A stretch of DNA of 64,000 bases from Hormiphora californensis (Eukaryota; Animalia; Ctenophora): NCBI GenBank assembly GCA_020137815.1, contig CM035357.1, positions 6,634,001 through 6,698,000 on the forward strand. The letters run 5' to 3'. Shown one piece after another: positions 4,142 through 36,191 of the stretch. How positions within the stretch are numbered: the first letter of the stretch is position 1; the number at the start of each line of letters is the position of its first letter. The notes under the pieces were generated by a model. It was not told the origin of the DNA. It did no database searches and saw nothing but the letters and a program-made list of their open reading frames with translations. The position numbers and the translations under genes were made by a program.

Positions 4142-4694
4142 TAAAGAGGAATGTCAAAGAGGGAAGGGACAGAGCCAGGGGCAGAAATTGAGAAAAATAA
4201 AAAACGGAGAAGGAAAATAAGAAAGAATAAATTATATTTTATGAGAAAACCTTGTATTGTTTATACTATTATTTTTTATTTTATAAAATAATAGTCCCGT
4301 GCCCCGGGGGCGCGGGGGAGGTGCAACAGCACAAAGAAAACCAACACACGCAACAGAATCAGGAACACAGCCAGGTTGTATGGGCCGCTGTTATCTCTCT
4401 CACACATCTATTTCTAGCCCTCTCCATGTGGCATTTTATGTGATCTTAGTGTTCCCACAATTACGTCATGTGAGAGAGAACGAAGGAAGCGTGTCACACA
4501 ACTTTATTGGCGGCTAGCAGTCTCTAACCTCTCTAATTCACTGAACTGTGTGTGTGTTTACCGTGCATGGCATATTATGCGGAACATGCAACACATTTAC
4601 ACATTGGATACACACACACCCAGAGACAATACAAGTACACTGACTTAATCAATGTCCGATAAATCGAGGTTTGACTGCAATGATTTAAGAATCT

Positions 4695-6593
4695 TCAATC
4701 ACCAAGAGAGAAATCCATGGTGACAACATTCAACAGTCGACCCACACTCTCTGCTATAAACTCCAGGGGTATATCCCCAATATGTACAGTTAAGATCTCA
4801 AAACACCGCACCTCACCCATGCCTTGTTTCCCAAAATAATGTTCCATCATCTTCCTATACTGTAGGCACTGCATCTCAAATTGTGGCCGGTCTGGTACCC
4901 ACTGGTCCTTTGTTGTAGGAGGACTGATCCGGATCCCCTCTCGGCTGGTGAAACAACACACATACCCGTACTGCAGCTCCCGTTTCCTCATGTATCCAGA
5001 GAGGTACCCCGCCCGGAACATTGATCTACCAAATCTGTGGAGGGTCCGCTGGATAGAGTGACAGAATCGGGAACTATCACCTGTCTCCCCTGTCAAGGAG
5101 GGTACTACTACACGGTGGGTGCTACGGTTTATCACCACAAAGTGGGCCATACCAGGGAAATCAACGAGGTAGTTACCCAGAGTGAAATTCCGTTGTGCCT
5201 TGACTAGAAGGAAGGAGGAGGAATCACGGAGTCCGTTTGAGACATTCTGGTATATTGACTGGATAGCACCAGTGTTACACTCCGATGTTGTGTCCCCTTC
5301 AGAACAGTAGATAACGTAGAAAATCCGGCGGAGTTTGGTGATTAAGGAGGAAAGTGGTGCTTCGATCTGTCTGATAAGGGTGGCCTGTTGTCTGAACTTG
5401 CTATCAACCATTTTCCAATCTCGTACAGCGTCGTTCCACTTTTTAAGAAGATCTCCCGATCCTTTCAAATCCTTCTCGATGTTCTTGTTATACACCTCCA
5501 GTAAGCCCCTGTTTTTGTTGAACGTCTCCTTTATCAGCGCTATATCCTTATCTTTCTCACCCTGAGGCACCACCCCATCCTCTGCACTCTCCCATCTCTT
5601 GATCGTATCCCCTAGCAACCGGTTCATCTTGGATAACTTTTGGATTGTACCGCATATATTTGGTGCTACTGCAGTTTTTATCTCCGCTTGTAACACTAGT
5701 GTTATCCCGGGTCTAATAGAAACTGCAGTCAGAGTATACGGGATATAATTGTTAGGATGACCCTTCCGCTTGATAAACACCGTCTGCTGGTGACTCTTCA
5801 TGTCCCTGAGATCCCCCGCACTACTGTAGTTATCGATATCAACAGGTGACCGGGGCAGGGAGATGTGGGATAGAAATATCAGGAGAAGTCTATCGAGTGG
5901 ATCAATTGAGTTGTGGAGACCTTGAGAGGTGCTCCGTGTACAAATCAACTTCCCATTAGACATCAACATAGCCTGACAATATCCACTATCAATCCCCCGA
6001 GCTGCGTCCAGAGCTGCCGACACTATCTCCCACGCCTGTCGTTTTAGCACAGGATTAACGTGGAGATCCTCAACTCCTTCAAACAGGAAACTCGGCTGGA
6101 AGTGTTCCTCGTATATCTCTTGGAAGTAGGAACTGTCTGGGTTGGTATATTTATCTGAACTGCCCCTGACATCACCCCAACTATCCATAAAGAATGATAT
6201 CCTATTCCACAACCTCTCCCTCAGTTGGGGATCCTCAGGTCGGAGGCAGTGAATAGCAGGCCCGAGATGAAGTTTAGCTACCTTCTCAAACAGCACACAT
6301 CTCTCTATCGCATCCTCAATTGCACACCTATCAATACAGATCACGTCGATGGTATCAAAGCGGTGGAAAGCAACATTGTGGCCGTCATGGAGTCGAACAC
6401 TTTCAAGAGGGTTGTTCAGGTTCTCCTGCTGTTTGGTCTGAGCGAATGTGACAGTGGAAAAGAACTGCAGAACAGCATCAAGGAAGTGGTGATCTGGACC
6501 GTACATTGATGTGATTTTATCAGTGAATTCAGCATCACACCGGGCGTAAATGATGTCATTCTTGACGTTGTTGAATGCCACTAAACTTCGCAT
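4695..6593 (-). CDS. HPS1: Hermansky-Pudlak syndrome 1 homolog (BLOC-3 subunit, longin-domain Rab32/38 GEF), intronless, 632 aa
   Basis: Long open ORF. Motifs FLLVKAQRNFTLGNYLVDFPGMAHFVVINRSTHRVVVPSL and YRKMMEHYF...VRCFEILTVHIGDIP match the recalled HPS1 C-terminal longin region. Confidence 0.85.
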   Translation of the reverse strand: MRSLVAFNNVKNDIIYARCDAEFTDKITSMYGPDHHFLDAVLQFFSTVTFAQTKQQENLNNPLESVRLHDGHNVAFHRFDTIDVICIDRCAIEDAIERCVLFEKVAKLHLGPAIHCLRPEDPQLRERLWNRISFFMDSWGDVRGSSDKYTNPDSSYFQEIYEEHFQPSFLFEGVEDLHVNPVLKRQAWEIVSAALDAARGIDSGYCQAMLMSNGKLICTRSTSQGLHNSIDPLDRLLLIFLSHISLPRSPVDIDNYSSAGDLRDMKSHQQTVFIKRKGHPNNYIPYTLTAVSIRPGITLVLQAEIKTAVAPNICGTIQKLSKMNRLLGDTIKRWESAEDGVVPQGEKDKDIALIKETFNKNRGLLEVYNKNIEKDLKGSGDLLKKWNDAVRDWKMVDSKFRQQATLIRQIEAPLSSLITKLRRIFYVIYCSEGDTTSECNTGAIQSIYQNVSNGLRDSSSFLLVKAQRNFTLGNYLVDFPGMAHFVVINRSTHRVVVPSLTGETGDSSRFCHSIQRTLHRFGRSMFRAGYLSGYMRKRELQYGYVCCFTSREGIRISPPTTKDQWVPDRPQFEMQCLQYRKMMEHYFGKQGMGEVRCFEILTVHIGDIPLEFIAESVGRLLNVVTMDFSLGD

Positions 6594-6776
6594 TCCTCGA
6601 GTTTACCTCATGTATCATGTACACTTCTGAGAAGCCCTACAAGGGGGAAGTGATGGGGAGTGAGGTTCATGTTACAACAGATAAAATGGCTAAAAATAGA
6701 AGACAACCCCAAACAAAATAATGTTGTAAAAACAGGATGCGATAGATAAAATAAATTAAAAAACTCAATAACACAT

Positions 6777-7717
6777 CTAGCTTCCCTCCTCCGACTGTGC
6801 ACCGTATCTCTCTTCCCCTCTGAGAAGGCATTCCACACAGGTAACGAGGTTATCATAGAACGAGCACGTTGCCACTAACCCTGTATCCCCTAACCAACTT
6901 GCACCATACGCCAGAGACCCATGATCAGTATAGGATGTGACTATATCCAATGTATCTCGATATAACACATGAAAACCCACTATGCATCCCAGCCACAAGG
7001 ATATGATCACGTGACTGTTTCAACCTCCAATACTCCACCTCCCACTGAGGATGTATGGAGGGGTGTCCGTGGGTTCCTAGTGTCCCACCTCCTGACCACC
7101 TCATCGTAGCACCCAGTTAGTACGTGATGTTCATGTTCGGGTGAAATACAACAAACACCCATGGTGTGTTCTTTAGTGTTACTAAAAATAGAAACACCAG
7201 ATCGAATATCAGTAGCTTTGAAAACACAATCATCCCCACCAGAGTAGAGAGTATCACCAGACACCCCAATACCCCACACCTCCCAACCCCAACCCCTGGA
7301 ACCATGCAGAGCGGGGAAGGTAGCTGAGACAGAGCTGAGAGAGGGATCCAGAAGGAAAGCTGAACCTTTATTATCACTGACTGCAGTAGTAACACCATCA
7401 CTCTCTACTGCTAACAAGATGTTACCGGGAGATACCTCAATAGTGCGGTCCTTATCATCCGTTATAAGGTGAACTTCACCGGACGCTTTAGCGGCTAGAA
7501 GTGTCTCCCCATCAGGTGTCCACAGTAGATCCAACACCCCTCCAGTTTCCCATTTCCTAATCTCCTTCATGCCATCTGATTCCCATCCCATAAGGGTCAC
7601 ATCACCAGGTCTCATATCACTCTCTAGCTGGTATGTTGCCACTGCAAACTCATTTCTTCCTGGTCTCTGTTCGACACTGTCCGCTGTGTACTGCGTGACA
7701 TACCGGCCAAGCAACAT
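6777..7717 (-). CDS. DPH7: Diphthine methyl ester hydrolase, WD40 (DPH7/WDR85), intronless, with two apparent +1 frameshifts
   Basis: Motifs YTADSVE, VATYQL, LYSGGDD, HTMGV, TGCYDE.VRRWDTRN, GGGV/WRLK, GMHSGF, HGSLAYGASW and ATCSFYDN. The likely start is ATG 7717, which follows a pyrimidine-rich AG. The frame is broken at about 7030 and about 6973. Confidence 0.9.
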
Positions 7718-7834
7718 ACTGCTACAGGAAGATATGGGGATATTACACCGAGATATCGTCATAGCAACAATATATAGAGGGTCAGGGGTCACGTGTCTGA
7801 GGGTAAATATCAGGGTGGTCACGTGATATATGTT

Positions 7835-8317
7835 TTAATGAGGCTGAGGAACGTGCCCATCAACATAAAAGTTCCGTGTTACCCTGGGTAACTCAACTGT
7901 TATCCCATCCAACTCCTGACTCAGTACTATCTGACAACTCAGTCTACTGTTCTCTCTGAGATCAGGTGCCATGTCCAACATGTCCTCTTCCTCCTCTGAT
8001 ATCTCCCCCAGTTTATCAAACGAGGCATCATCCACATACACGTGACAAGTACAACACGCTAGAGATGCCTCACATGCCCCCTCTATATCAATCCCATTTG
8101 AGTGTGCCAGATACATGACGTTGTCTCCCTCTCTGGCAGTTAGAGTTCTAGTACTGCCGTCCTTCAGGATGTAGTTGATGGTAACGGGAGGAGCGGTGGA
8201 GGGAGCAGGGGAACCTCCGTGGAGAAGTAGAGGCGCTGTGTGGAGACGGCGTGAGATGAGGAGCGAGGTTATTGGTTTAGTAAGGGACATTAGACTTCTG
8301 ATACATTTAGTGGCCAT
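7835..8317 (-). CDS. FDX2: Mitochondrial [2Fe-2S] ferredoxin-2 (adrenodoxin-like), intronless
   Basis: N-terminal basic transit-like peptide, GACEASLACCTCHV, EEEEDMLDMA, SRLSCQI, and the FDX2-type C-terminus TRNFYVDGHVPQPH. Confidence 0.95.
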   Translation of the reverse strand: MATKCIRSLMSLTKPITSLLISRRLHTAPLLLHGGSPAPSTAPPVTINYILKDGSTRTLTAREGDNVMYLAHSNGIDIEGACEASLACCTCHVYVDDASFDKLGEISEEEEDMLDMAPDLRENSRLSCQIVLSQELDGITVELPRVTRNFYVDGHVPQPH

Positions 8318-9129
8318 CGCTATAAAGGAGAGGTATCATTCAGTTATCGATTGATTTTAGAGGAATGATTGTTCGACCGGTAGTTTAAATGAGAGAGAGC
8401 TAGGGAGAGCACGCGAAAGATAAAAGTTACGATATAATGCGCTGTGTTTCTATCCCGTCCGTAGGGCGGGTACGGTTTTGCTAGTAAATAAAATGTATCG
8501 CAAACTTCAAAAAAATGACTCCCCCCCCCCCCCCGAAATTTCCGGGTACCTTTTTAGTGACAATTGGCCATTTCTAAGCTTATTAGGGACACATTGGGCA
8601 TTATTTAAGCAGTGTAGAGACCACTGGGGAGTAGGAGGAGGGCAGTGAGTGATTGTTGAATGTTAAAGGAAGAACTGAGTGACAAAATGAGGTGTTTGAA
8701 CTGAGAGAACGAGAGTAACAGGAAACGAGAAACGATCAGAATGCAATGAGGTTTCCGGGAAGTGTGACACGAAGTGGTAACCATGTTTACGGGCCTCCGC
8801 AAGCAACTCTAAAAGTGGACTTTTAAATAAATATGAAATAAAATGCATCGCAAACAACACAGAGATTCTTGGAAATAGTTGTTTGATAACAAAGTTAGTT
8901 TACAAAAATACTTGACACTGCTGTTTTATGTAGAAGAGATAAATAATATACTGCTTCAATCCTTTTCACCCATTTTATACTTCCACTTGACTTTCAAAGT
9001 CTTATTCTCTCGCTCACTTTCCGTTCTACCTCTAGTATATCTCACGCTCTCAATATTATAATATCTCGCCTAATATATAATATACTGCAGCTAAGAAAGA
9101 TTAATTATATAGAAGCTCACAACCACAAT

Positions 9130-9295
9130 TCTCTACACAACACACATGTGTCTCTTGGAAGACAACAAATTGTATCACCACAACACATGTCTCATTTTGT
9201 AAGAGACAACAACACATGTCTCCCTAGCAACTCGTAAGAGACAACAACACATGTCTCCCTAACAACTCGTAAGAGACAACAATATACATGTCTCA
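9130..9295. repeat. ~35-bp degenerate tandem repeat (aagagacaacaacacatgtctcc...)
   Basis: About 4 imperfect copies downstream of the TMEM64 stop. Confidence 0.7.
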
Positions 9296-9675
9296 TATAT
9301 CACAACAGAATATACTTGAAATCACGCACCTCCTAACATACACAAACAACAACATCATTATATTATACGGGGTGGGCACAGAAAATATGGGCATCACAAT
9401 GGGAATATAGTTCACGCTGTATTAGAGACAGTGTACAATATAGCAGTAGCTCTTACAAACACATAAAAACATACTCTTTCTCTCTAACACACAGCAGTTC
9501 AGAGTTTTATACCAACACAAAATCTCCCCCAGCTCCATAGTCCATTATAGTCAGATGATGTTGATAATGATGTTCAGAGCATCTCCAGTAGTAGTTAGGA
9601 ATATAGTGGGGTGTGTAGTTCTTGGTATAAAGCTCTGTGCCCTGATCTCACATCACTAGACTCCAGTTCAGTACT

Positions 9676-12600
9676 TCATCTAAACTGGAGGGGCTGGTTG
9701 ATAATCTTCTGCTTCGACATCAGCACAGCAGAGGCACTTTTAGACCGGGTGTGGCCCTTCTTGTACCCCTCCCCAGCCTCCAGATCCTTCTCCCTCTCCC
9801 CAGCCTCGATGTTCCTATTGATCTCTTTCCTTGCTAACCGCGTTACAAACACCATCAAGAATATAGAGATGAGGAGTTGGAAGGAGAAGATAACGTAACT
9901 CTCACCATCACTCGATACCACATCCTTCATCGATCTGAGAGAGTGGTTTAGGGTTATAATTAGGTGTCTGCGATAAGCGAGAAATTGAAACGAATTGTAA
10001 TGTAACTAGAAGAGTAATGACTAGGATTAGTAACGAGCTAGTAATGACTAGGATTAGTAACGAGCGAGTTATGACTAGGATTAGTAACGAGCGAGTAATG
10101 ACTAGGATTAGTAACGAGCGAATGACTAGGACTAATGACAAGTCACCTGAGAGTGGTCCCAAAGAAAGTATTGAGGACCTGGGTTGGCAGTAAACCCGTC
10201 ACTGTAGCAAAGGTATACTTGAATATTGAGATGTTGGTTAGAGCGAAGACGGCGTTCTGGAAACCGAACGGTAGTGGAGTTAGTCGCGTTAGGGCAATGA
10301 TTTTTATACAGTTTTTACCCTCGATAATTCTCCTAATCGCCATTAAACTTCCCGTATCCTCGCTCTCTCCGCTATCCAAATATTTTTGGATCCACCCCGC
10401 TAGACACTTCCTGATGATGAAAAATGCCAGGATGGATCCGGTTGTAACGGAGATGAAGATTATCAACATACCCAACCAGAACCCGTACATGTAGCCCGCA
10501 GCGATGTTGAGGATTAGGTAGCCGAAGGAGCCCGGGAGGGAAATAATGGTGAATAGGAAGACAAATATTAGACCACTCTGCCATCTTGGAAGATAATCCA
10601 ACCAGTTTAGGAAATCCTGGAAATATACAGAGCGCGTTAGAGAGTTTAGATCGTGTTTAGAAGTATTTAGAATCGGCTAAAGAGTTCCTGTTTTCTATTA
10701 CAATGGGGGGGGGGGTGCAGCCCCAAAAAAAATCAAACTTTTTCCGAAACCCAGGGTATGGTTGATTTTTTTTGGTTTTTTTTGGTTGAAATTTCTTTGA
10801 TTTTTTTTGGTCGTTTTTGATTTTTTTTGGTCGTTTTTGATTTTTTTTGATCGTTTTTGATTTTTTTTGATCGTTTTTGAATTTTTTTGATCGTTTTTGA
10901 ATTTTTTTGATCATTTTTGATTTTTTAAATGTTTAATGTTTTTTGGTCGTCTTTGATTTTTTTTGGTCGTTTTTGATTTTTTTTGATCGTTTTTGATTTT
11001 TTATGAATTTTTTTGATCGTTTTTGATCGTTTTTGATTTTTAAATGTTCAATGTTGAACAAAAAAGTTCAAAAAAAATCAAAAACGATCAAAAACGATCA
11101 AAAAAGTTCAAAAAAAATCAAAAACGATAAAAAAAATCAAAAAAGATCAAAAAAAATCAAAAAAGATCAAAAAAAGTCAAAAAAAATCAAAAACGACCAA
11201 AAAAAATCAACACTTTTGAAAATCCAGGGTATGGTTGGTTTTTTTTTGGGCTGCACCCCCCCCCCCTACAATTCATTCTCAGCTGTCCAACTCACCTCTA
11301 AGTGATCACGGCAAAATATAAAGACAATACAGCAGACTAGAAGAAAGAGCAGGGCGGGAATTCCGCAGGACCTCCATGACCGCTTCGAACTAGCAGCTTT
11401 CTTTGCTACCAACTCATCTAATTTCGTCTGAAGAGGGGGGATGTTAATATTCAATTTACAAGATATTGTTACAAAATATGTCCCCTATTTCTTATCATTT
11501 TATATGGTCAAATTACGAGCTTTATTTCTTATTTCTATTCGTATCTTCTGTGAGTTGATTTATACATCGTCTTCTTCTTCTTCTTCTATTAGGCCGTCTC
11601 CACCATGGGTGAGATTGAGGGGTGGTACCATAGAGATTCCTTTCCCCGGCCTGGTTTGAGGGTGGAATTTCTTAGTCCTCTTCCCCCCGGTTTAACTGTT
11701 TCAGGATATCCATGAAGAATGAAACAGTCTTGGTGATCGGGAAGCCATTCTTGATGTCATCGAGGGTTAAACCAAGCCGATCAAACCTCTCTTGTCGCTC
11801 TTTCCAGAGAGCTGGACAGTCTGTGAGGAGGTGTTTGGCTGTTTCATTTTCTATGCCGCATAGGCGGCAGGTTGGAGTGTTTGCTAGTTTCATCTTGTGA
11901 AAATGGTATTTAAGTGTGTTGTGCCCAGTTAGAAGCTGGGTTGCCGCTCTCAAGTGATTTCGGTCCAGGTGCTGGAGCTGTTTGCCGTGGTTCGGGTTCC
12001 AGAAAAGATTCATGTGAGCCGTTGGAGCCGTTGTCATTTTTATCTTCTCCCTTATACATCGTCATACAGAATACTTATGTTATTCTAACTTTAGCTTTCA
12101 TATATTCCAACATTCATTAATATGCTCCCCCTCGATCTACCATCTCCACCCCCCCCCCCTAGAGTGTGTACGTCATACGGTTCAATAAAACTGCCTTTTT
12201 TAGAATAAGAGAAACAGGGCAGGCTACCGATTTCTCACCTCTTGTCCCCCCTCCCCCCTCTGTATCTCTCACCTCTTGTCACCCCTCCACCCTCTGTATC
12301 TCACCTGTTGTCCAAGGCAGTTGTGGGGAAGCAGCTCATCCTCGTGAACACAATAGTTCATCAGTTGGCTGAGGGAGGGAGTGTGTTATTGTAACATTGT
12401 TTAACACAGTTCTACTCTAATGCGAGAGAGAGAGAGTGCAACAAATTCGGCTGCATGCTAGACAACACTGCTCCACAACTTAATATATGCAAATATGTGT
12501 GTAGCAAAAGATCAGTGCAGAGCTGCAATAAAACCATGGAAAGCAAGGGTAGAGTATAAAATCGTGCAGGCAGCATTATAGGTGTAGCATGTCTAGTGCA

Positions 12601-12923: not shown

Positions 12924-12994
12924 CTAGGAGACCTGTTATACCATGGGGTGATGCTAGATGTCAGGGGGAGGGGTGAGGGATACAGTAAAATAAT

Positions 12995-15194
12995 AATGTA
13001 GCAACTAGCAAGCTTGATTGTAATAATCTTAGTTCTGATAAAACTACTAGGAATGCGAAAAAACAAGCTCCCCATACTAAGTTTGGACAAACTCGGTAAC
13101 CTGTGATTATAACAGCTCTATAACATTCTACAGCACAATGTACTGTTTACTACAAGACACAATCATCCTAATTGTTGCACTAATGGCTATTTCATATTTA
13201 TTACTACAGATCTTTTTTAGGCGGTAATTGCAGCGAATTCGTTAATTAGCGGCAATAATTGGACTTTTTTACAGAAGAGCGTCTGTACAAAGCATACGAT
13301 TTATGATCTATTAGCCAGCAGGCTGGGCCTCATGCAAATACGCACTACTAGAGCGAAGTAAGAGAAGGCGTAGTGGAAGTACGAATTAACACGAGTATAA
13401 AGTAAAAACGGAATGAAGAACCATATGAAAATTGTATTGGTTGACAACATGGATCTACGTCGAAATATGTTGTCAATACAAGTAACCAAAACGAACGCTA
13501 AACCAGATATTAAGACAATCAGCTGAAGTACAACGTTGACATAGACTAGGACGTAAGGGGTACAAATGGATAGGAAATTAAAATCGCGAAAAAGTAATGA
13601 GAATCGCGAAAATAAGGCCTCGAAAAATCGTTACGACAATTGTGAGATAAGCTATACAAACAGATCATGTCGCCGGTGAGACAGCGGGTTAATAGCGGGC
13701 TAATGAATGTATAATGAGAGGCTCTGTACAGCAACAGATTATAGAAACATAGCAGAATGTCCACATGAAATCAAAAGAGACGAAAAGAAAGAGAGAGCAT
13801 GGCCATTAACAGCGATTTAATGTACGAAATGAAAGAAGCCTATGAAAATTGTTATTGGTTGCTAGCAGGGATTCGTCGTTGGAACCGTAGTAGACCTACG
13901 AACCTTAGTAGACTAGAATAGTAGAGACCAGACATGGTTGTGAGTACACAGGCCTATTGACAGTGAGACAGACTCACAAACAAAGACAATAGATGGGAGA
14001 GAGAGAGAGAGAGAGGGAAGAGAAGAGAGAGAAAAGGAGAGAGAGAGACGAGATCGAGAGGGATCGTAAATATATGTAGTCAACTAGCCATCTTGATTGT
14101 ATCAGGCTTAGTTCTGAGTAAACTATAAGAATTCGAAAAACAGCTCCCCATACTAGTTTGTGGACAACTCGGTAACCTGTGATTATATCCGCCCGGCCTA
14201 TACCTCACCAGTACTGTTACTACAAGACACAATCATCCTAGTACTGTAAAACTACTAATTTTCGTGAGATTTTTATTTTCGCTCTTTATTTTTGGCTGGA
14301 AAATCCGCGAAAATTAATTCCGCGAAAATATTTTGGACGATTTTTTACAGAAAGCTCGTGCAATGAGAAAATGCTCACATTTCATTGGTCTATGCCAAGC
14401 AGGTCTGGTGTCTCATGGCAATGATGACTGCACTCTTGGCGTAATTACACGGGTGCTTGTAGTGAGAATACGGTATCAGTTCAACACGGTATCAGTGAAA
14501 AACGGTAAATTGAGACCAATCAGAACGCCAGGTTGACAACACATGACACCGAAATATATGTATTTCAAATACATATGTATTTCAGAAACCGTAATGGTCA
14601 AAAACCGTATTATTCAGACACCATATTCCCACTACAAGCAGCACTGTTAGACAATAGACTAGGACCGTGAAATGGGGGTAGCAGTGGGATAAGCGAAAAT
14701 TAAAATCGCGAAAATAGTCAATTTTGATCGAATCGCGAAAATTAATGGCCTCGAAAATATCTAGTTTTACAGTACTAATTGTTGAGCACTAATGGCTTTA
14801 TACCTAAACAGATCATGTCTTTAGTCCGGTATTGAGTGACAGTTCGGGTTAATTAGCGGGCTAATTGAACGTGTTACTAATTGAGAGGGCCTCTTGTACA
14901 GCATACAGAATTATAGAATACTAATTAGCACTGACATGGTCCCTGACATGAAATATCAAATAATAGAGACAGAAAGAGAAAGAGAGAGGACATGGCCAAT
15001 TAACAGCGAGTTTAAATGTACGAAAATGAAAGAAGCCTATGAAAATTGTTATTGGTTGCTAGCAGGGATTCGTCGTTGGAACCGTAGTAGACCATACGAA
15101 CCTTAGTAGACTAGAATAGTAGAGACAGACATGGTTGTGAGTTACACAGGCCTATTGACAGTGAGACAGACTCACAAACAAAGACAATAGATGG

Positions 15195-15226
<32 letters not shown>

Positions 15227-15628: not shown

Positions 15629-15871
15629 ATCTCCAAGAAGAATGTACTAGAATACACAAAGACATATGACAGACAACATGACAGAGATTGTAACAACTGT
15701 AACCGTGTGTCACGAGGTAAAATATTACAATTTTAGCTGTACATGATAACAGTTAGAGGTGTTACAATTCACGACAGGCTACTGAAGTAATAACCCAGAC
15801 TCCTGTGTTACTAATAAATAATAATTTTACTCACTCGAGGGAACATAAAAAATTAACTAAACACTACTTAA

Positions 15872-17173
15872 GGGTACACCTGGCGTTTTTCATCATCGAG
15901 TGCCCAACCAAATGACTTCACCAGGGTTTAGGCCATACAAAATGGACCTCAAATATGCAATTTTAGCCCTAAAGTTGAATTCATATTTTTGCTACAGCCT
16001 ATTTTCAAAGTGGCGTTTTTTCAATTTTTGGTGGAATTTTTAACCTCAGGACCACTTTTTTTGAGATAGAAACATTAAATTCTTGGAATTTGAAGAGAAT
16101 ATAAAGGTAAATAAGCCCAAAGAAGGATTTTTGAAATGGAGCTAATTTATGGCCATGAGAACGGTTTACTTTTTTGCTTCTTTGACACGCTGGCTGAGAA
16201 TGTTCCCATGCTTCATTAGAGATGAAAATCTGGAAATAGTTGCTCAAAACGATTATCTATGTGGCCCAAAAATTTTGGAACTTTCCCACCAAAGATGTGG
16301 TGTACAGAGCTTGTTTTGTGAAACCCATCTTTTTGAAAAAGAGGGAGATTCCCTGTATCTCAAAAACGGATGATCGTAGAGACCTGCGACCAAGCTTAAT
16401 CGATTCAGAAGGTCCGATTTTGGGGGGGTCTTCTGAGAGACATTTTGCTCCTACTCCAACCGTTTTTGCTGTACTTGCAAAAAACCAATTCTATGAAAAG
16501 GGGGAACAACTAAATTCCAGTAGCCTGCTTCGGGCTGATTTCCCCCTTACTTGCTGATAGCTTTTTCGCAATTACAGCAAAAACGGTTGGAGTAGGAGCA
16601 AAATGTCTCTCAGAAGACCCCCCCAAAATCGGACCTTCTGAATCGATTAAGCTTGGTCGCAGGTCTCTACGATCATCCGTTTTTGAGATACAGGGAATTT
16701 CCCTCTTTTTCAAAAAGATGGGTTTCACAAAACAAGCTCTGTACACCACATCTTTGACGGGAAAGTTCCAAAATTTTTGGGCCACATAGATAATCGTTTT
16801 GAGCAACTATTTCCCGATTTTCATCTCTAATGAAGCATGGGAACATTCTCAGCCAGCGTGTCAAAGAAGCAAAAAAGTAAACCGTTCTCATGGCCATAAA
16901 TTAGCTCCATTTCAAAAATCCTTCTTTGGGCTTATTTACCTTTATATTCTCTTCAAATTCCAAGAATTTAATGTTTCTATCTCAAAAAAGTGGTCCTGAG
17001 GTTAAAAATTCCATCAAAAATTGAAAAAACGCCACTTTGAAAATAGGCTGTAGCAAAAATATGAATTCGACTTTAGGGCTAAAATTGCATATTTGAGGTC
17101 CATTTTGTATGGCCTAAACCCTGGTGAAGTCATTTGGTTGGGCACTCGATGATGAAAAACGCCAGGTGTACCC
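15872..17173. mobile_element. 1.3-kb near-perfect palindromic non-autonomous DNA transposon, TTAA TSD (Kolobok-like GG...CC termini)
   Basis: Reads ttaa|gggtacacctggcg...cgccaggtgtaccc|ttaa. Arms are about 610 bp with few mismatches and the spacer is about 75 bp. This explains the mirror-image ORFs in the ORF track. Confidence 0.92.
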
Positions 17174-17357
17174 TTAATGCTATTCAAAAACGAAAATAGT
17201 TACTTAAGTTACTTAAGTGCAGGAGTTTTTAAGATCTAAATTTATGAGAATACATTATACAGTCTGTTATTATACACAGGTTCATGTCCAAAGGAGAGAC
17301 AGCAAAGATATTATTAGTGATTGGCTATCGCTTGTAAGAGAGGATAAGGAAATAGTG

Positions 17358-18229: not shown

Positions 18230-18997
18230 TAGAGAGAGATAGAGATAGAACGCTGGGAGACAGAGGTCAGAGAGTGAGCCAAAAAGGAGAGATGAAAGAC
18301 AGAGAAAATAATTTTATGTTCGAACAATTCTAAAAGTAATCATAGTCATTTTAAAAAACAGGTGCTTCCGCCTCGCTTCTGATTAGTGGTAGGACTAGGG
18401 CGCCTCTACTCACTATGTACAACCTACAGTGCAATTTATTTAGTGCCAGCCTCCCTAGTCTCTGCAATCCTACTAAGTACTAAGGTAAGTAATAGGACTG
18501 GAACATGGAAAAAACAAAGACATATGAAAGAGCTGCTCCTACCATTATAATAGAGGTGCAGCACTAGGAGTACAATGGGGGCACGGGGTACTGCAAACTA
18601 ACAATAGACCACGTTTTAATCAATATATTACACAGGTGCACACAGTATTAGGTATCAGTGAGGGGCGGGGGGAATTACAGCATGCAGGAGGGAGGGAGAC
18701 TTAACGAATAACATACAATAATCACAGACACTAATGACTAACGAATCACACCAAAATAACAAAACATCAATAATCACGGGTATTAGAAGTTGAAAATCAC
18801 AGAAATACACTGCTTACCAGTATGAAACTACTCTCTCACTTGCTCACGAGTTGTTATAGCAGCATTGAGCTAGAGAGGGGAAGAATTGAGGTCGTTAGTA
18901 AACACGCAGAGAGACAGAGAAATAATACATCTTGAGTGCCCGGGTTTTAAAAACAAAAACAACAATAAAATATTAAATCAAGATGACAGATCATGTT

Positions 18998-20971
18998 TCA
19001 ATCTAATCGATCCTCCTCTTCAATATCAAATTCCTCCTCCTCCTCACTCTCCCCAGCTCCCTCTCCAGTCTCGTCGACCACCTCAATCCCATCCTCATTG
19101 TTCCGAGCCAGAGAGTTCAACATATCACGTACAAAGTCTCCAAAAGGCCCTGGAATAGCTCTAACATTGTCCCTCCACCCCGCACCTCCAGCTCCCTCTG
19201 GAACTGCTTCTTCATTTCCATCCCCAGCAGGTTGTAAAAACCGTCCTAATTGGAGTCCCCGGGGTGGTGCCCCTCTCTCCTCCTCCTCTACAGCCCCATC
19301 TGGGTTATATCCAGGTAGGAGAGAGTTGATAAATGCTGTTATAGGGTCCAATTGAGCACGACTTCTCTCAACCTCAGATTTGTAATCAGCATAGCTGTCC
19401 GGGGGTGGCATGGGGTCGTGTGGATCTTGGGTAGTTTCAAAGGCATCCGTGGGAAGGAGAGCAGAGACAGGGGGGATATCAGAAATAAAGATATGTCTCA
19501 TGACATTGAGAGGGGGTCTCATGAATACACTCTTTCTAACCTCCATAGATCTGATATACTCAGGATAGTTTAGATAACCCTCGTTTACCTTGTTCACTGT
19601 ACTTTTGAACCACGCTACCACAGCAGAATCTCTCCACAGATCACTACCTCTCTCCACATAAAGTTTACACTGTTGCGTCAGAGATTTGGTATGGGACTTG
19701 TGAACCGTTTCGTTACTAACAAACAACCCGTTACTCGCACACGTGATGTTACACTTGTCACAAAGACCATGTGCAATAAGCGGGAAAAAGAGGATAGCGT
19801 GTTCAAGAAGTGATGTAGAGTTGTCATGTGATCCACTGTTCTCCATAACTTCCTTGTAAAACGTGGCCAGGGCGAGAGAATAGGCAAAGTTAGGCAACAT
19901 CCGAACACTATTTCCGTGCTCAAATTGTTCCACAAACCCAATCACAAAACTGTAATCCTCCGTTTTTAGAGCGAGTGTGTCAATGAAAAGAAGCATTGCT
20001 AGTGGATCTCCCTCTGGCTGCAAGTTGTAGAGTAGTTTACAGAGCTCAAAGGCAGCCTGATGACAGGATTTACGAGATGCGTAGAGGATTTGCCGAAATA
20101 ACCCAACAAACAGGCCCCTGTTTTCAGCCCTCCTATAGTCCATTTGGCAGGACACTGATGTGACATTAAAGTTAGGATGGAATGCCTTCTCAAGGCAGAA
20201 CATGGCCCGGTTCAGAAGATCAGCAGCAGTCTGGGAATCATCACTAATTCTGCATACCTCACTAAGATGAAGGAGGGTGTCAATGTGGTATGGGTGTAGT
20301 TGTAAAACTCTCTGTACAGCGTGTGGGTCTGCTAACCGGGACGCTCTCCAAAACATCTGCTGCAATCCCTGATAGTTAGCTTTACTGTGGACGTACTTGA
20401 AGTAGGTTATACCACCACTTTCTTTTTCCACTACCATTTGGATGCCACATTTTTTCATGGGAGGCCAGTTGCTTTTAGGATTGGAGAATATGTAGCTCTT
20501 CCTCCGGAACTGTTGGTGAACGGTTCCTCGATCTTCAGTCACATCACTGCCAAACAACCGACGTAGTTCATTGTCTGAGTTGAGGAATTTTCGACGAACG
20601 AGTAGGATGGATTTATGTGCTTCTGAGAGATTCTGCTGAAGCGACTTGTTTCCTTGGTTACTCTTAATTTCAAGCTCAGCCAATATTTCGTCGATATCCT
20701 CATTTTGAGACGTTTCTGCTGCCTTTTTCTTTGGTTTCTTTTTCTTCTTCTTCCTTTTGGCAGCAGGGGCGGCTACCTGGACGACTTCAGGTTCGGCAAC
20801 ATCATTTTCTCCACTGTCACTCCCTCCTTCTTGGAGGAGATCGAAGACATTCAGCGACTTTTGAGGTGCTACAACATCATCATCTTTCTCTTGATCGTTA
20901 CTAACAAGGGTTTTAGCTATTCTATCAAGGTCAGAGTCACCACGAAGCTTACGTAAGGCCCTTGAAGACAT
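18998..20971 (-). CDS. TCF25: Transcription factor 25 / Rqc1 homolog (ribosome quality control), intronless, 657 aa
   Basis: N-terminal MSSRALRKLRG, then FLNSDNELRRLFGS, PKSNWPP, LQLHPYHIDTLLHLSEVC, LEKAFHPNF, ENRGLFVGLF, GDPLAMLLFID and LPNFAYSLALA, with an acidic tail. Confidence 0.95.
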   Translation of the reverse strand: MSSRALRKLRGDSDLDRIAKTLVSNDQEKDDDVVAPQKSLNVFDLLQEGGSDSGENDVAEPEVVQVAAPAAKRKKKKKKPKKKAAETSQNEDIDEILAELEIKSNQGNKSLQQNLSEAHKSILLVRRKFLNSDNELRRLFGSDVTEDRGTVHQQFRRKSYIFSNPKSNWPPMKKCGIQMVVEKESGGITYFKYVHSKANYQGLQQMFWRASRLADPHAVQRVLQLHPYHIDTLLHLSEVCRISDDSQTAADLLNRAMFCLEKAFHPNFNVTSVSCQMDYRRAENRGLFVGLFRQILYASRKSCHQAAFELCKLLYNLQPEGDPLAMLLFIDTLALKTEDYSFVIGFVEQFEHGNSVRMLPNFAYSLALATFYKEVMENSGSHDNSTSLLEHAILFFPLIAHGLCDKCNITCASNGLFVSNETVHKSHTKSLTQQCKLYVERGSDLWRDSAVVAWFKSTVNKVNEGYLNYPEYIRSMEVRKSVFMRPPLNVMRHIFISDIPPVSALLPTDAFETTQDPHDPMPPPDSYADYKSEVERSRAQLDPITAFINSLLPGYNPDGAVEEEERGAPPRGLQLGRFLQPAGDGNEEAVPEGAGGAGWRDNVRAIPGPFGDFVRDMLNSLARNNEDGIEVVDETGEGAGESEEEEEFDIEEEDRLD

Positions 20972-21049
20972 TTACATTTCAAAAAACAAGGAAATTTTGG
21001 TTTTTTCGACTTTGAATTTTAAAATTTAAATTTTGATTTTGATACGCGC

Positions 21050-21121
21050 GTGAGATGCATCGCGATTGCAATTTGAAAAATGCCGCGGCATTTTTCAAAT
21101 TGCAATCGCGATGCATCTCAC
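21050..21121. repeat. Perfect spacerless 72-bp palindrome
   Basis: gtgagatgcatcgcgattgcaatttgaaaaatgccg|cggcatttttcaaattgcaatcgcgatgcatctcac; the two 36-bp arms are exact reverse complements. Confidence 0.97.
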
Positions 21122-22059
21122 AAATTAAACGTAACGCGCGAAATTCTTCCAATTTATCAAGTTTTTAAAATCCCCAACTGTTTTTTGAAAACACAAAGTC
21201 GACTTTTTTTTCTGTTGGACCCCGCCGTGATTGGAATGCGCTGCAGCCCCCTCATGCGCGCACCCCCGCAACGAGGGGACTGGAGGGAATGCCGCGCGCG
21301 CGTTTGGCCTGATCCCGGCTGGGTCGAAGATAACTTTGCGGTCGAAAAAACGGCGGTGCTTATAACTTTGGCTCCTGAAGTCCGTTTGACTTGATTCTTT
21401 CACCAGTTGTTAGATCTGACGATTATCTACCTTGCTGTTTTTGAGAGAAGTTAATTGGACTTAAGGAGGCTGAGCAATAGCCGTTGAAAGATGGGTTGTT
21501 TTCAAAAAGTGACGTCACAGATTCTTGCAGGGACACCTTTTTTTAAATTTCATTCAAATTTTGATTTTACCGCACTCGATTTTGCGGAGTTTGGTTCATA
21601 TCTCCTGTTCCTGATAAGATAGAGACCTGAAACCGGTTGCATTTGAAAGCTGTTATCTTCCTCTTTCCAACGCTACCAAAACGATTTCTGTACCTTATCT
21701 GGAACCGGAGATATGATTGATTATGTATTCCCCCCTAGCGCGGTATTCCCTCCAGGCCCCTTATATTATATTATAAGGGGCCTGCAACGTATGCCAACCG
21801 CCGTGAGCCCTCCCTGGCCAAGGACGGCTCACGGCAGGAAGATGGCTCAAGAAGGGTTCACCGTGAATTGGGCCACCGTGAATTGGGTTTAGGGGCTGTA
21901 ACTTTGAAGCCCAGACTCTGGGCCCCAGAGTCGCGGATGCGAACTGCGGTCCAGGAAGCAAAAATTCATTCACCCATCCTATCCTTTCCCAGCAAATTAT
22001 GCAATTTCTCGGTTGTTTCTCACAAAGTTTTAATATTGTCGTGCGTGGCCCTCAGTAGT

Positions 22060-22170
22060 CAGTAGGTACCCCGAGGCCCGAGGCCCCTGAGTCATCAGCC
22101 ACGCATTATTTATTTTAACTTCCGAGATCGAACGAGATCGGGTGCCCGCAAGAAGGGGCGTGTATGTTGA
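22060..22170 (-). pseudogene. 5S rRNA-derived fragment (pseudogene or SINE3-type head)
   Basis: Minus strand 22145-22115 reads GCACCCGATCTCGTTCGATCTCGGAAGTTAA, the conserved 5S helix III/A-box region. The flanks diverge, and a TCGGGCCT..GTAC remnant follows after an insert. Confidence 0.7.
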
Positions 22171-22261
22171 TTGTGATTCAATGTATACAAATTAGATTGA
22201 ATAAATAAATAAATTATTTATTTTGCATTTGTGGTCAATTATCAATAACACTCTTTAGATA

Positions 22262-31551
<9,290 letters not shown>

Positions 31552-31740
31552 TATGGAACTACTGTTTTAAATATAACTTATTACTTTTTTATCAACTCTT
31601 TTAGAAACATATTGTTTTCCTAAACCTGAGCTAACCATTATCCAACTCTATAAAACTCCTTGAATAATACACAGTGTCAGGTGACTAAAAAACTCCCTCC
31701 CAATATAATACTAATTACTACTAAATACTGCAATATAGCC

Positions 31741-33934
31741 ATGGGTAGATTACGAAGTGTAAAGAAGTCAGATTTACCTATGAAGAAAAAGGAACCTGAA
31801 AAGAAACAACTAACTGCCTACCGTGCTACTCGATTGGTATGTGTTAAGTATTATCATTTGGTATAGATCATGTAGTAATTGTATCGTGTTTTGTGTTCTA
31901 TCTAACTGTTAAATTAACAACACTAACAATACTCCTGATACAGTGGAACCAGGTAGTTAACGGGTTCAAGAGGTTCATGCCCCTGAAGACACATCGTGTC
32001 AACATGATACATGTGTATGAGGAGGCGTTCAAGAGAGACGACGCCCAGAAGTGGCTGGTCGAGTTTATCAGGTAAACTGAGAGATGCTAGAGTTTATCAG
32101 GTAAACTGAGAGAGTTCATCAGGTATTATACCCAGATAAGAGAGAGGGTGTCCAGGAGCAGGGAACTGGGCGGGTGTCTAGAAGAGGATGGGGTAGTACT
32201 TTACTAAGGTGTTGTCCCCCTAGAATAGGAACTATTTAGTGTTTTTCGTTCAACCTAATTCAACTTTATTTTCAGGGATAGTGAATTGTTGAAACCGATC
32301 TCAATAGAAAATGCTGGGTTGCTCCTTGATAAGTTTACTGGTATGGGCATTATTGAACAGGTGCGTGTAAACACTAAACTGTAACATTAGAACCCATAAC
32401 ATACTCCGTTTTTATATTGATTGAATCCCCCCAGTGTGCTCCAAGACTTGCACACCATATTATCTCCAATATATTCTATCCTAGGTTTGTTCCAGTAAAA
32501 GTTGGTTAAGGACACCCACAGTAATTTATAAGTTCAGCTCAGTTGATCAGAGTAGAGTTGAGAAACTTCGTTCCCTCAGATACTACAGGTTAGTGTGTTT
32601 CAACTTTCTACTGGGCTAATTGAGGCTACTCGAGACTATTAAAAGTTCAATTTGGGTCTTGAAAATCGTCAATAAAATTAAATTTTGCCGATCTGCTTCG
32701 ATTAACTTTCCACTTTCAGCCGGACCCCCACCAAGGGAACGTCAGTGACAGTGCCTCCTTCAGCCCCCTCCCATCCCCTAAAATCTATACATCCTTCACA
32801 GCAATGTAATCAACAGGTACTTGAAATACAGATCTTGAAAATTATAGAACAGAACAATTAAATAGAAAAGAACAATTATTAAATAGAGAAACATTATTTT
32901 TACTTTGACGTCCTATCCATAAATCTATGGGATGCAGCACGGGGACCAGAAAGGCAGCTTTATATTATTTGGTTGTTTCAGGTAAAACCTGCACCCTTAG
33001 CGGCCCGGAATAATCTGCTAGAATACGAGGCGTCACCTGCACCTGCAGCAAAGGGGAAAGAGAACAAAGAGAATAAAGAGGGCCAGCTCTGTACGCCCTG
33101 CAAAAAGAGTAAGTCTGGGTTTCTCCACATTGTTTCCAAGTTGCAGCTCATTATATTCGGTTGCATAATTTCAAAATTTTTGTTTCAGTTTTTGGTTACA
33201 GTAATGTTCTCTTTCATTCCCTTCAGAACCACAGTTAGTAACTTGCTACACTGTATAGCTGGATGGTCTTGCTAACAATCTATACACTTTGTGATCTTGG
33301 CAATAATCGAATTGTGCCTTGCTAATCTGCGATTGTAAAATAATATGCAACGCTCAAATGATTTCTTGAACTCCAGTCTCTGATCTTGGAATTGTCTGTC
33401 TACCAATACTATCCGCATGAGTGCTAACTAATAATAATAACTATAATCACATACCCCTTTACCCCTATATCCTAACACAACATCTCTCCCAGGACGAAGT
33501 AGTTTCCTGCCCCAGAACCCCATGTTTTCCTCAACACCGAACAAGGGTATGGAGCCCTCACCCTACACCCGAGCACTGGAGACCATCAGAAAGTCACGTG
33601 ACAGGGCGAGGAGACTGAAAGAGAGCAAGAGTACTGGGGTGAAGAGATTAGGGAACAGGGGGCCGCATACTAAAGGTAAGACGTTAGACAACCAGGTATG
33701 ACCAACTTTGATCCGTTACCGTCTTTTGAGTAATATATCTGTATTCATTGCCAGTCCCCCTCTGAGTGTCCCATTATCAAGACCAAATTACTTATATCAA
33801 ATTCAAATATGTCCCCACCAGATCTGTACTCTAAAAAGAGAAGGAACTCTGTGATTGAAGACATTCTAGAGGAGTTCGATGAGTTGATATCAGCTATTGA
33901 CAGAGGGAATATTAAACGGACTTCCTCTCAGTGA
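31741..33934 (+). CDS. DEP-domain protein of the DEPDC1/DEPDC4/DEPDC7 family lacking the RhoGAP region
   Basis: Spliced N-terminus ...AYRATRL|WNQVVNGFKRFMPLKTHR...EAFKRDDAQKWLVEFIR|...NAGLLLDKFTGMGIIEQ|...IYKF aligns by eye to DEPDC1 YRATKLWNEV..FRAGMPLRKHR. Later exons are low-complexity, with a stop at about 33934. Confidence 0.7.
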
Positions 33935-34766: not shown

Positions 34767-36191
34767 ATGAGTGAAGCAGCAGCTGAGAGGATAACCAGCA
34801 CTCTTGACGTTGCTAACATGTTACCTGTTATTATCGCTATTGTAATAGTCATCCTCTCATTTCTACTGATCAAACAACTGGGAAGGACCAAGGGGAATAA
34901 TGTCATTCTTTATGGGATAGAGGGTGCAGGTAAGAGATCATAGCGCTGGCAAGGAGAGCTAGCTGAATCCCCCAGTATTTTGTGAGCGTGTTAATCACGT
35001 GATCTGTGGTGAGAGAGCACTGTAAAGAAGGTGCTTGTTGTCGCTAAAGTTGCCCATTAGCAGCCGTGGGAGGGCCCCAAAAAGGGAAGATGAGGAAGGA
35101 GGAGGAGGGGGGAGAGAGAGGGAGAGGAGGAGAAAAAAAGGGGGGAGGAGAGGGGGGGAGAAGGGAGAGGGAAAAGAGGGGGGGGGGGAAAAAAGGAAGG
35201 GGGAAAAAAAAAGGGAGGGGGGGGGAAAAAGGGAAAAAAAAAGGGGGAAAAAACCCCAAAAAAAGGGGGCCCCCCCCGGGGGTTTTTTTTTTTTTGGGGG
35301 GCCCCCCCCCTTTTTTAAAAAAACCCCCCCCCCTTTTTTTTTCCCCCCCCCATCTTTTAAAGGTAAAACCCCCCGTTTCCCAAAATTTTTTGTGGGAGGC
35401 CAGGATCAGATATCTCTGAAAGAGAACACAGCCCAACTAGGGGGAACCCCGCCTGTAACTGTGGTTGATATACCTGGAAATGTGAGGCTGAGGAGCGAGA
35501 TTCAACAAGTGAGTACTGTACTGGGAGTAACTCTTTCCTTCCTTGTTGTAGTTAGTTGAACGAGTTCGAACAATTTAGTACATAGTTTTGTTATAACCGG
35601 AATATGATTTATTCTCCCTATGTAGTACCCATTCCTAACCTCCCCCCCCCCCAGATACTCCAAGAGTGCCCGAGGGGTGGTACTGGTGGTGGACAGTGGA
35701 GAATTTGTCGAGAACAAGAGAGAGACTTGTGAGGCTCTATTTGAAGTGCTAGTTAACAGTGATATCCAGAAGGCCCGGTGCCCCGTTCTGGTGCTGTGCA
35801 ATAAGCAGGATTATGAGATGGCACGAGGCGCTGGAGCCATCCTGGCTACCCTCGAGAGTGAGGTGAGAAGATTTGTGCATTAATAAGTAGCCGATTGATG
35901 GAGTAGTTTAGATCGTTTGATCTGTGCTAGTTCTAAAGGGGTGAAAATTGGGAAGAGAAAAATATGTCTGATAAATTTATCTGATAAATTTCTCCCCTAT
36001 TTCAGTTGACAGTTCTGAACGATACTGCTGCCTCCCTGACTGATGACTCTGGATCACAGAAGACCCTTTTCCCTCGTGGCACTGAAATCAAGTTTGAGAA
36101 AGTTTCCAATGCTGTGACAGCAGTTGGAGCTACCTCTATTGGAGAAGAGGTTGATATTGCATCCCTCAAGCAATGGATTATGGAGCTGTAA
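34767..36191 (+). CDS. SRPRB: Signal recognition particle receptor beta subunit
   Basis: N-terminal TM, VILYGIEGAG|KT P-loop split by an intron, VVDIPGNVRLR, ARGVVLVVDS, PVLVLCNKQD and C-terminal LKQWI. The start of exon 2 lies in garbled sequence at about 35360. Confidence 0.9.

Follow-up and report, generated by a model that had tools for sequence, protein, structure and literature searches.

A compact FDX2-DPH7-HPS1 gene block in ctenophore DNA as a candidate spliced-leader-resolved operon

Introduction

Three closely spaced genes, FDX2, DPH7 and HPS1, in a stretch of 64,000 nucleotides (nt) of contig CM035357.1 (positions 6,634,001 to 6,698,000; hereafter the window) raise the question of whether ctenophores transcribe neighbouring genes as one unit and separate the products by spliced-leader trans-splicing. 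Operons resolved by a spliced leader are known in nematodes, tunicates, flatworms, chaetognaths and Hydra, and ctenophores are a candidate sister group of all other animals. We find that the FDX2-DPH7-HPS1 block is real, conserved and tightly packed, and we suggest, on the basis of the sequence, that it is probably a spliced-leader-resolved operon in which one precursor would be cut into three mRNAs.

Ctenophore operons as such have probably been predicted already and are not a new claim here: in the 2014 genome paper on Pleurobrachia bachei, Moroz et al. reportedly described some hundreds of operon-like clusters. In the literature searched, we found none naming this block, or a conserved or tested ctenophore operon. 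A spliced leader has been reported for Hormiphora (PMC8527503) and for P. pileus (PMC4824033), and in Hormiphora it is present on at least 56% of the Iso-Seq reads (PMC8527503). The main text of PMC8527503 contains neither the word 'operon' nor the word 'polycistron'.

Results

Three intronless genes lie head to tail

FDX2, DPH7 and HPS1 follow one another on the minus strand, without introns and with spacers of 117 nt and 183 nt:

7835..8317, minus strand: FDX2, mitochondrial ferredoxin-2; ATG 8317, stop TAA 7837-7835, intronless, 160 amino acids
7718..7834, minus strand: FDX2-DPH7 spacer, 117 nt; ATTAAA (7839-7834) over the FDX2 stop, no donor-like GT
6777..7717, minus strand: DPH7, WD40 diphthine methylhydrolase; ATG 7717, stop TAG 6779-6777, intronless
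6594..6776, minus strand: DPH7-HPS1 spacer, 183 nt; U-rich first half, without AATAAA or ATTAAA, no donor-like GT upstream of the acceptor
4695..6593, minus strand: HPS1, BLOC-3 subunit; ATG 6593, stop ending at 4695, intronless, 632 amino acids

A preliminary description of this stretch had proposed an operon-like layout of three intronless, co-oriented genes in a ctenophore. Open reading frames (ORFs), gene identities and spacers bear the layout out, and the coordinates, quoted sequences, spacer lengths and the overlap of ATTAAA with the FDX2 stop were exact. The lineage was also correct, as 621 of the 632 HPS1 residues (98%) are identical to P. bachei P0004, with zero indels; by its protein matches, the window belongs to the ctenophore genus Pleurobrachia. 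The sole match of HPS1 in the PDB is BLOC-3 HPS1 (E 1.5e-17). FDX2 matches Pfam Fer2 (E 1.4e-10), and its best PDB match is ferredoxin-2 (E 5e-42), compared to about 1e-24 for adrenodoxin. DPH7 is about 92% identical to the P. bachei protein; its relatives bear the names DPH7 or diphthine methylhydrolase, with the Bolinopsis members named diphthine methyltransferase homolog, and P0001 is a WD40 propeller with full-length similarity to Bugula DPH7 (35% identity over 327 columns, E 3e-49). An in-frame upstream ATG at 7762 was rejected as the DPH7 start because the homologues begin at the methionine at 7717.

Predicted acceptors precede each gene and the spacers lack donors

Upstream of each start codon, a pyrimidine tract ends in an AG:

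8320..8335, minus strand: pyrimidine tract and TATAG; AG 2 nt before the FDX2 ATG, candidate acceptor (trans, or cis in the 5' untranslated region, UTR)
7722..7740, minus strand: pyrimidine tract and TGTAG; AG 4 nt before the DPH7 ATG, second AG at 7719, predicted trans-splice acceptor
6637..6665, minus strand: strong pyrimidine tract and TGTAG; AG 43 nt before the HPS1 ATG, predicted trans-splice acceptor

The stop-to-acceptor distances are 113 nt (FDX2-DPH7) and 140 nt (DPH7-HPS1). The HPS1 acceptor is present as the preliminary description had it, with the AG 43 nt from the ATG and ending at 6637 rather than about 45 nt away at about 6638, and a branch-like CTCAC lies 28 nt upstream of it. 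Upstream ORFs of two codons follow the acceptors of HPS1 (MR-stop, 6636-6594, minus strand) and of the next gene, Ras (MK-stop, 3603-3566, minus strand), and an out-of-frame ORF overlaps the HPS1 start.

To rank these sites, we used an acceptor model trained on 35 introns of the window picked by eye, eight of which were checked by open spliced translation (five in Ras, two in TMEM64 and one in the gene after URB2), and compared them with 3046 unmasked YAGs. By tract score the FDX2 site is in the top 3.4% of YAGs (46th percentile of real introns), the DPH7 site in the top 3.6% (40th percentile) and the HPS1 site in the top 0.03% (100th percentile). An equally good AG is found at most 50 nt before 12.3% (FDX2), 8.8% (DPH7) and 0.5% (HPS1) of 1434 random ATGs and within 10 nt before 3.5% (FDX2) and 2.1% (DPH7) of them, all figures from a model version that differs in one training site and shifts scores by at most 0.3. 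Singly, the FDX2 and DPH7 acceptors are thus modest and the HPS1 acceptor is strong; jointly, the three would be unlikely by chance.

A donor model built on 20 sites, in which real donors have leave-one-out scores of -1.5 to 7.2, left both spacers without a donor-like site (highest scores -2.7 in the first and -2.8 in the second, below all 20 real donors). Together with the tract ranks, the spacers without donors support the earlier assignment of splice acceptors, which are likely, as predicted from the sequence, to be trans-splice acceptors. Donor-like sites are present upstream of FDX2 at 9329 (6.0) and 8549 (0.7), so that an ordinary intron in the 5' UTR could end at the first acceptor, and inside coding regions at 7703 (3.1) and 8073 (0.9). 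The DPH7-HPS1 spacer is U-rich, as had been described (42% T, 60% in the best 40-nt window). Folding z-scores of the spacers are -1.30, 0.41 and 0.57, and a bacterial promoter scan, which is not applicable here, gave results at chance level.

No leader gene was found in the window, as judged by matches to a 20-nt piece of the Hormiphora leader at up to three mismatches, and Rfam gave zero matches over the window at gathering scores. In RNA run X1, from a diverged relative (pieces 76-91% alike), the region 4450-10700 has matches to a 65-nt HPS1 piece and two TMEM64 pieces, with zero on FDX2 and DPH7; the region 18800-24100 is matched by three TCF25 contigs, with a 23-nt loose 5' end that lacks a leader-like AATTTGAG end.

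The acceptors share the word T[AG]TAG

All four start sites examined first (FDX2, DPH7, HPS1 and Ras) have acceptors ending in T[AG]TAG, compared to none of the 35 internal intron acceptors, 27 of which end in CAG; the motif was picked after those four sites had been seen. At five further starts the word occurs three times (gene after URB2 at -2, SRPRB at -12, GPCR at -2), the starts of the GPCR gene and of the gene after URB2 being inferred without homologues, and it is absent at TCF25 and at URB2, where the start is unplaced and was scored as a miss. In total, T[AG]TAG is found at 7 of 9 examined gene starts (8320, 7722, 6637 and 3604 on the minus strand; about 31738, 34754 and 57907 on the plus strand). 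It lies near 4.4% of random ATGs within 15 nt and near 12.4% within 45 nt, giving p values of 0.0008 and 0.016, respectively, for three of five. Both strands of the window together (128 kb) contain three copies of the longer word TATAGCNATG, all of them at inferred gene starts. T[AG]TAG is a possible trans-splice acceptor signature; if a distinct acceptor word holds, annotation of trans-spliced genes would become easier.

The neighbourhood is conserved in other ctenophores

Hormiphora and Mnemiopsis have limited microsynteny, with collinear blocks of at most four genes (PMC8527503). The preliminary description had proposed checking gene order in other ctenophores, and the outcome favours the block. 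In Mnemiopsis leidyi, DPH7 (ACHWQZ_G003768 / KAL5266483.1) and HPS1 (ACHWQZ_G003769 / KAL5266484.1) have consecutive tags and lie on the same record of 14,925,576 nt. Among records of at least 5 kb, 7 of the 13 distinct sizes with a ctenophore DPH7 and 7 of the 9 with HPS1 coincide (5601, 50710, 148260, 276330, 342086, 357603 and 14925576 nt). The coinciding pairs represent four lineages (P0174/P0034, P0167/P0039, P0050/P0007 and P0051/P0010), which are 48-54% (DPH7) and 43-47% (HPS1) identical to Pleurobrachia and are scattered among the ctenophore branches in both trees.

The FDX2 end of the block is represented by locus L001 (DNA or RNA), in which DPH7 is 91% identical to that of Bolinopsis microptera and the end of FDX2, GHVPQPH-stop, lies 319 nt upstream of DPH7 and matches the window except for four synonymous third positions and the stop codon. 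The L001 spacer is T-rich and contains two ATTAAA and a tract whose AG ends at 430, 6 nt ahead of the ATG at 437; its best donor score is 1.0, and its best 40-nt T fraction is 0.625, given, like the other T fractions, as a raw value. The spacers of the window and L001 give no meaningful alignment. L001 carries TTCTAG in place of T[AG]TAG, and the latter word may be specific to the genus of the window. At 1-118 of L001, the last FDX2 codons and the stop are repeated 4.5 times in perfect 26-nt units, perhaps reflecting an assembly loop. A two-codon ORF (MY-stop, 1450-1474) lies behind an acceptor-like AG at 1449 of L001.

The nearest FDX2 representative, P0185, is 72% alike and on a 1332-nt contig. 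B. microptera has two RefSeq DPH7 proteins (P0165 and P0166) on one 18.47-Mb record, and no RefSeq HPS1 of this species is in the clusters examined. Profile searches gave 0 of 196 candidate stretches for HPS1 in viral contigs, 0 of 34 for DPH7 in prokaryote genomes and 2 of 84 stretches for DPH7 in metagenome contigs; L002, a metagenome contig with a DPH7 match, is a plant-like locus and irrelevant here.

The DPH7 reading frame is interrupted in the assembly

The preliminary description had DPH7 right in identity and in its intronless state, but not in the intactness of its frame, having overlooked four indels. DPH7 is not one open frame in the assembly: +1 indels are present near 7030, 6978 and 6839, and near 6799 there is a fourth indel, all within the last 250 nt of the gene, and a second homologue, P0046, puts them at the same sites. 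The stop is placed at 6777 because the homologues end in EGS. Because identity to P0001 stays up past the indels (91% up to residue 230 and 94% beyond it) and an URB2 exon near 29880-30870 also appears frame-shifted, the indels are likely to be assembly errors. A 1.1-kb tandem copy rich in indels (12950-15200; 95 gap openings at 73% identity) and a stretch within SRPRB with many homopolymers (35080-35400) point to a noisy assembly. That DPH7 is a decayed pseudogene is unlikely; a very recent loss-of-function allele would be a less probable explanation than assembly errors.

Other features around the block and in the window

The wider order on the minus strand is TCF25 (20971-18998), TMEM64 (stop ending at 9676), FDX2, DPH7, HPS1 and Ras (ATG 3565), and the gaps from TMEM64 through FDX2, DPH7 and HPS1 to Ras are 1358, 117, 183 and 1129 nt. 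Two features flank the block:

8400..8900, minus strand: candidate promoter/outron region upstream of FDX2, a putative role suggested by its sequence
4503..4508, minus strand: AATAAA, candidate last polyadenylation signal of the block, 186 nt past the HPS1 stop

The ratio of observed to expected CpG (o/e) is 0.94 over 8320-8900, where CCGGAA words lie at about 8540 and at 8753 and further acceptor-like AGs at 8624 and 8701.

Elsewhere in the window, at 31552-31741 on the plus strand, URB2 is followed, 188 nt from its stop, by the ATG of an unnamed gene that has introns; the spacer contains a T-rich stretch and, 2 nt ahead of this ATG, a TATAG, and these two genes may be a second operon-like pair. 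The divergent TCF25/URB2 upstream region (20972-22260) has a CpG o/e of 1.1, ten CGCG and no acceptor before the TCF25 ATG, and is likely a bidirectional promoter with a non-trans-spliced gene. A 1.3-kb near-perfect inverted repeat (15868-17177, 96% identity) resembles a miniature inverted-repeat transposable element or a foldback element, and between URB2 exons (26044-29051) lies a tandem array whose units repeat about every 155 nt with about 94% identity.

Discussion

Combining the layout, the acceptors and the gene-order data, we suggest that FDX2, DPH7 and HPS1 are co-transcribed. The block has features of the operon class, i.e. short co-oriented spacers, predicted acceptors without donors, a leader-using lineage and a conserved neighbourhood. 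In this model, (i) one promoter upstream of FDX2 would drive a polycistronic precursor, (ii) cleavage and polyadenylation would occur soon after the FDX2 stop, with its overlapping ATTAAA, and soon after the DPH7 stop, which is followed by a U-rich tract without a canonical hexamer, and (iii) trans-splicing would add the spliced leader to the uncapped downstream RNA at 7722 and 6637, the AGs that lack a donor. The operon could reach up to TMEM64 or down to Ras; the extension to Ras is less likely because two AATAAA and a CT-repeat tract lie between HPS1 and Ras.

Several observations weigh against this model. At the acceptors, the full model, which includes the last bases, ranks the FDX2 and DPH7 sites only around the 20th percentile of real introns, since both have a purine in front of their final TAG, and under this model AGs at 8400 and 7797 score equally well. 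The FDX2-DPH7 spacer is not U-rich (31% T, 42.5% in the best 40-nt window). T[AG]TAG also precedes Ras, which is 1129 nt from HPS1, SRPRB, which is 830 nt from its neighbour, and the GPCR gene behind a repeat tract; these genes are not tightly packed, and the word therefore speaks for leader splicing generally and not for operons or co-transcription. As for gene order, the same record size is an indirect sign of a shared contig, and four of the seven coinciding sizes are from the Mnemiopsis cluster, with several re-assemblies, and so are not independent. Six of the 13 DPH7 record sizes (8018, 12522, 13241, 29796, 176937 and 18467570) and two of the 9 HPS1 record sizes (8898 and 40949) are unpartnered, among them both records of the deepest DPH7 branch (P0054 and P0184) and the Bolinopsis RefSeq chromosome; missing hits, contig ends or true breakage could each account for this. 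The Mnemiopsis adjacency is judged from tag numbers and a shared record, evidence that does not extend to orientation and distance, and the FDX2 neighbourhood is seen on a single contig, L001, with only eight FDX2 codons, repeated 4.5 times. Finally, short spacers are small breakage targets, and adjacency can therefore persist without co-transcription.

The most serious alternative, which we nevertheless regard as rather improbable, is that the three genes are transcribed separately from promoters of their own, located in the spacers or towards the 3' end of the gene upstream, that each transcript receives the leader after a short outron and that the overlapping promoters hold the genes together. 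Such an arrangement predicts the same acceptors as an operon and could also keep the genes together, and it fits the presence of T[AG]TAG before Ras, SRPRB and the isolated GPCR gene, the 319-nt spacer of L001 with its two ATTAAA, and the fact that leader splicing covers most mRNAs in Hormiphora's family (PMC8527503). Logan contigs with DPH7 alone (1064-1328 nt) or HPS1 alone (2135 nt) are also as expected for separate transcripts; processed operon mRNAs would look alike. However, the distance from stop to acceptor is only 113 nt and 140 nt and must also house the upstream 3' UTR, and a 417-nt Hydra spacer of similar anatomy is without promoter activity (PMC3273482). As a weak sign in the same direction, neither spacer contains a CCGGAA or CGCG word, in contrast to the regions upstream of FDX2 and between TCF25 and URB2.

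Alternatively, the AGs could be ordinary cis acceptors, either of 5'-UTR introns or of a shared upstream 5' exon spliced alternatively to each gene. The donor-like sites upstream of FDX2 (9329 and 8549) and in the coding regions (7703 and 8073) would be compatible with this explanation, which may hold for FDX2 itself. As a whole we consider it very unlikely, given that neither spacer has a donor-like site, that T[AG]TAG is found at none of 35 internal acceptors and at all four first start sites (for a motif chosen post hoc), that the window contains no 20-nt leader piece at up to three mismatches, and that the apparent shared first exons of Hormiphora have been read as mapping artefacts of the leader (PMC8527503). 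Least probable of all is that the tracts and TAG words are transcription-start or translation-context motifs, or partly chance, in a block that is simply densely packed: the FDX2 and DPH7 sites are individually modest and the word differs from the intron acceptors of the window (27 of 35 CAG), but TATAGCNATG is found only at inferred gene starts in 128 kb, the tracts rank among those of real introns (40th to 100th percentile) and L001 retains a tract and AG before DPH7.

We therefore favor a spliced-leader-resolved operon. The preliminary description had, in addition, pointed to a pairing of an iron-sulfur (Fe-S) ferredoxin with the Fe-S-dependent diphthamide pathway. This pairing is weak: DPH7 acts, according to the names of its relatives, at the methylhydrolase step, and the Fe-S step lies elsewhere, at Dph1-Dph2 with Dph3 (PMC8251694). 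In the literature searched, we found no support for Fe-S functional coupling of FDX2 and DPH7, and HPS1, which functions in vesicle traffic, is unrelated to both. Animal operons usually mix housekeeping genes (PMC12460157), and the block looks like this usual mix and not like a pathway unit.

A broader proposal is that ctenophores keep an ancient FDX2-DPH7-HPS1 operon throughout the phylum despite fast shuffling, and that Pleurobrachia marks trans-splice sites by T[AG]TAG, as opposed to intron acceptors that are mostly TTCAG, which would let the spliceosome and a genome scan tell the two apart by sequence. We put this forward tentatively and regard it as doubtful. The retention of the block between the lineages of the window, Mnemiopsis and a Bolinopsis-like ctenophore nevertheless provides a concrete locus for the question of ctenophore operons, and an operon could also account for the small blocks of genes that persist while ctenophore genomes are reshuffled.

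How does the block compare with known systems? We know of no second, operon-specific leader in ctenophores, and the nematode acceptor is TTTCAG, where the window has T[AG]TAG. The block resembles the SL2-type operons of C. elegans in intercistronic distances of about 100 nt and in the combination of unrelated housekeeping genes (PMC7986045), and their U-rich element (PMC3273482) has a possible counterpart in the DPH7-HPS1 spacer and in L001; it differs from them in that the FDX2-DPH7 spacer has no U-rich tract.

With the operons of Ciona, Oikopleura and chaetognaths, the block would share the use of one leader pool for monocistronic and operonic genes (PMC7986045, PMC12460157), and both of its spacers are below the limit of 250 bp used to call chaetognath operons (PMC12460157). 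Those operons were called from leader-bearing reads, whereas the block described here was called from genome sequence, and Ciona operons, unlike this block, are mostly without intercistronic DNA (PMC7986045, PMC12460157).

The closest parallel in anatomy is the RFC140-flp operon of Hydra, which also belongs to a non-bilaterian animal with leader trans-splicing and in which a short spacer between co-oriented genes contains a poly(A) signal, a T-rich stretch and a tract with a donor-less AG before an intronless gene (PMC3273482). The Hydra operon has been proven by a reporter, a promoter test and mutation of the AG, in contrast to the sequence-based case made here, and its distance is 417 nt compared to 113 nt and 140 nt from stop to acceptor in the block (PMC3273482). 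Compared to RFC140-flp, the ctenophore block comprises three ancient housekeeping genes, has shorter spacers and lies in a neighbourhood that is kept across ctenophore families.

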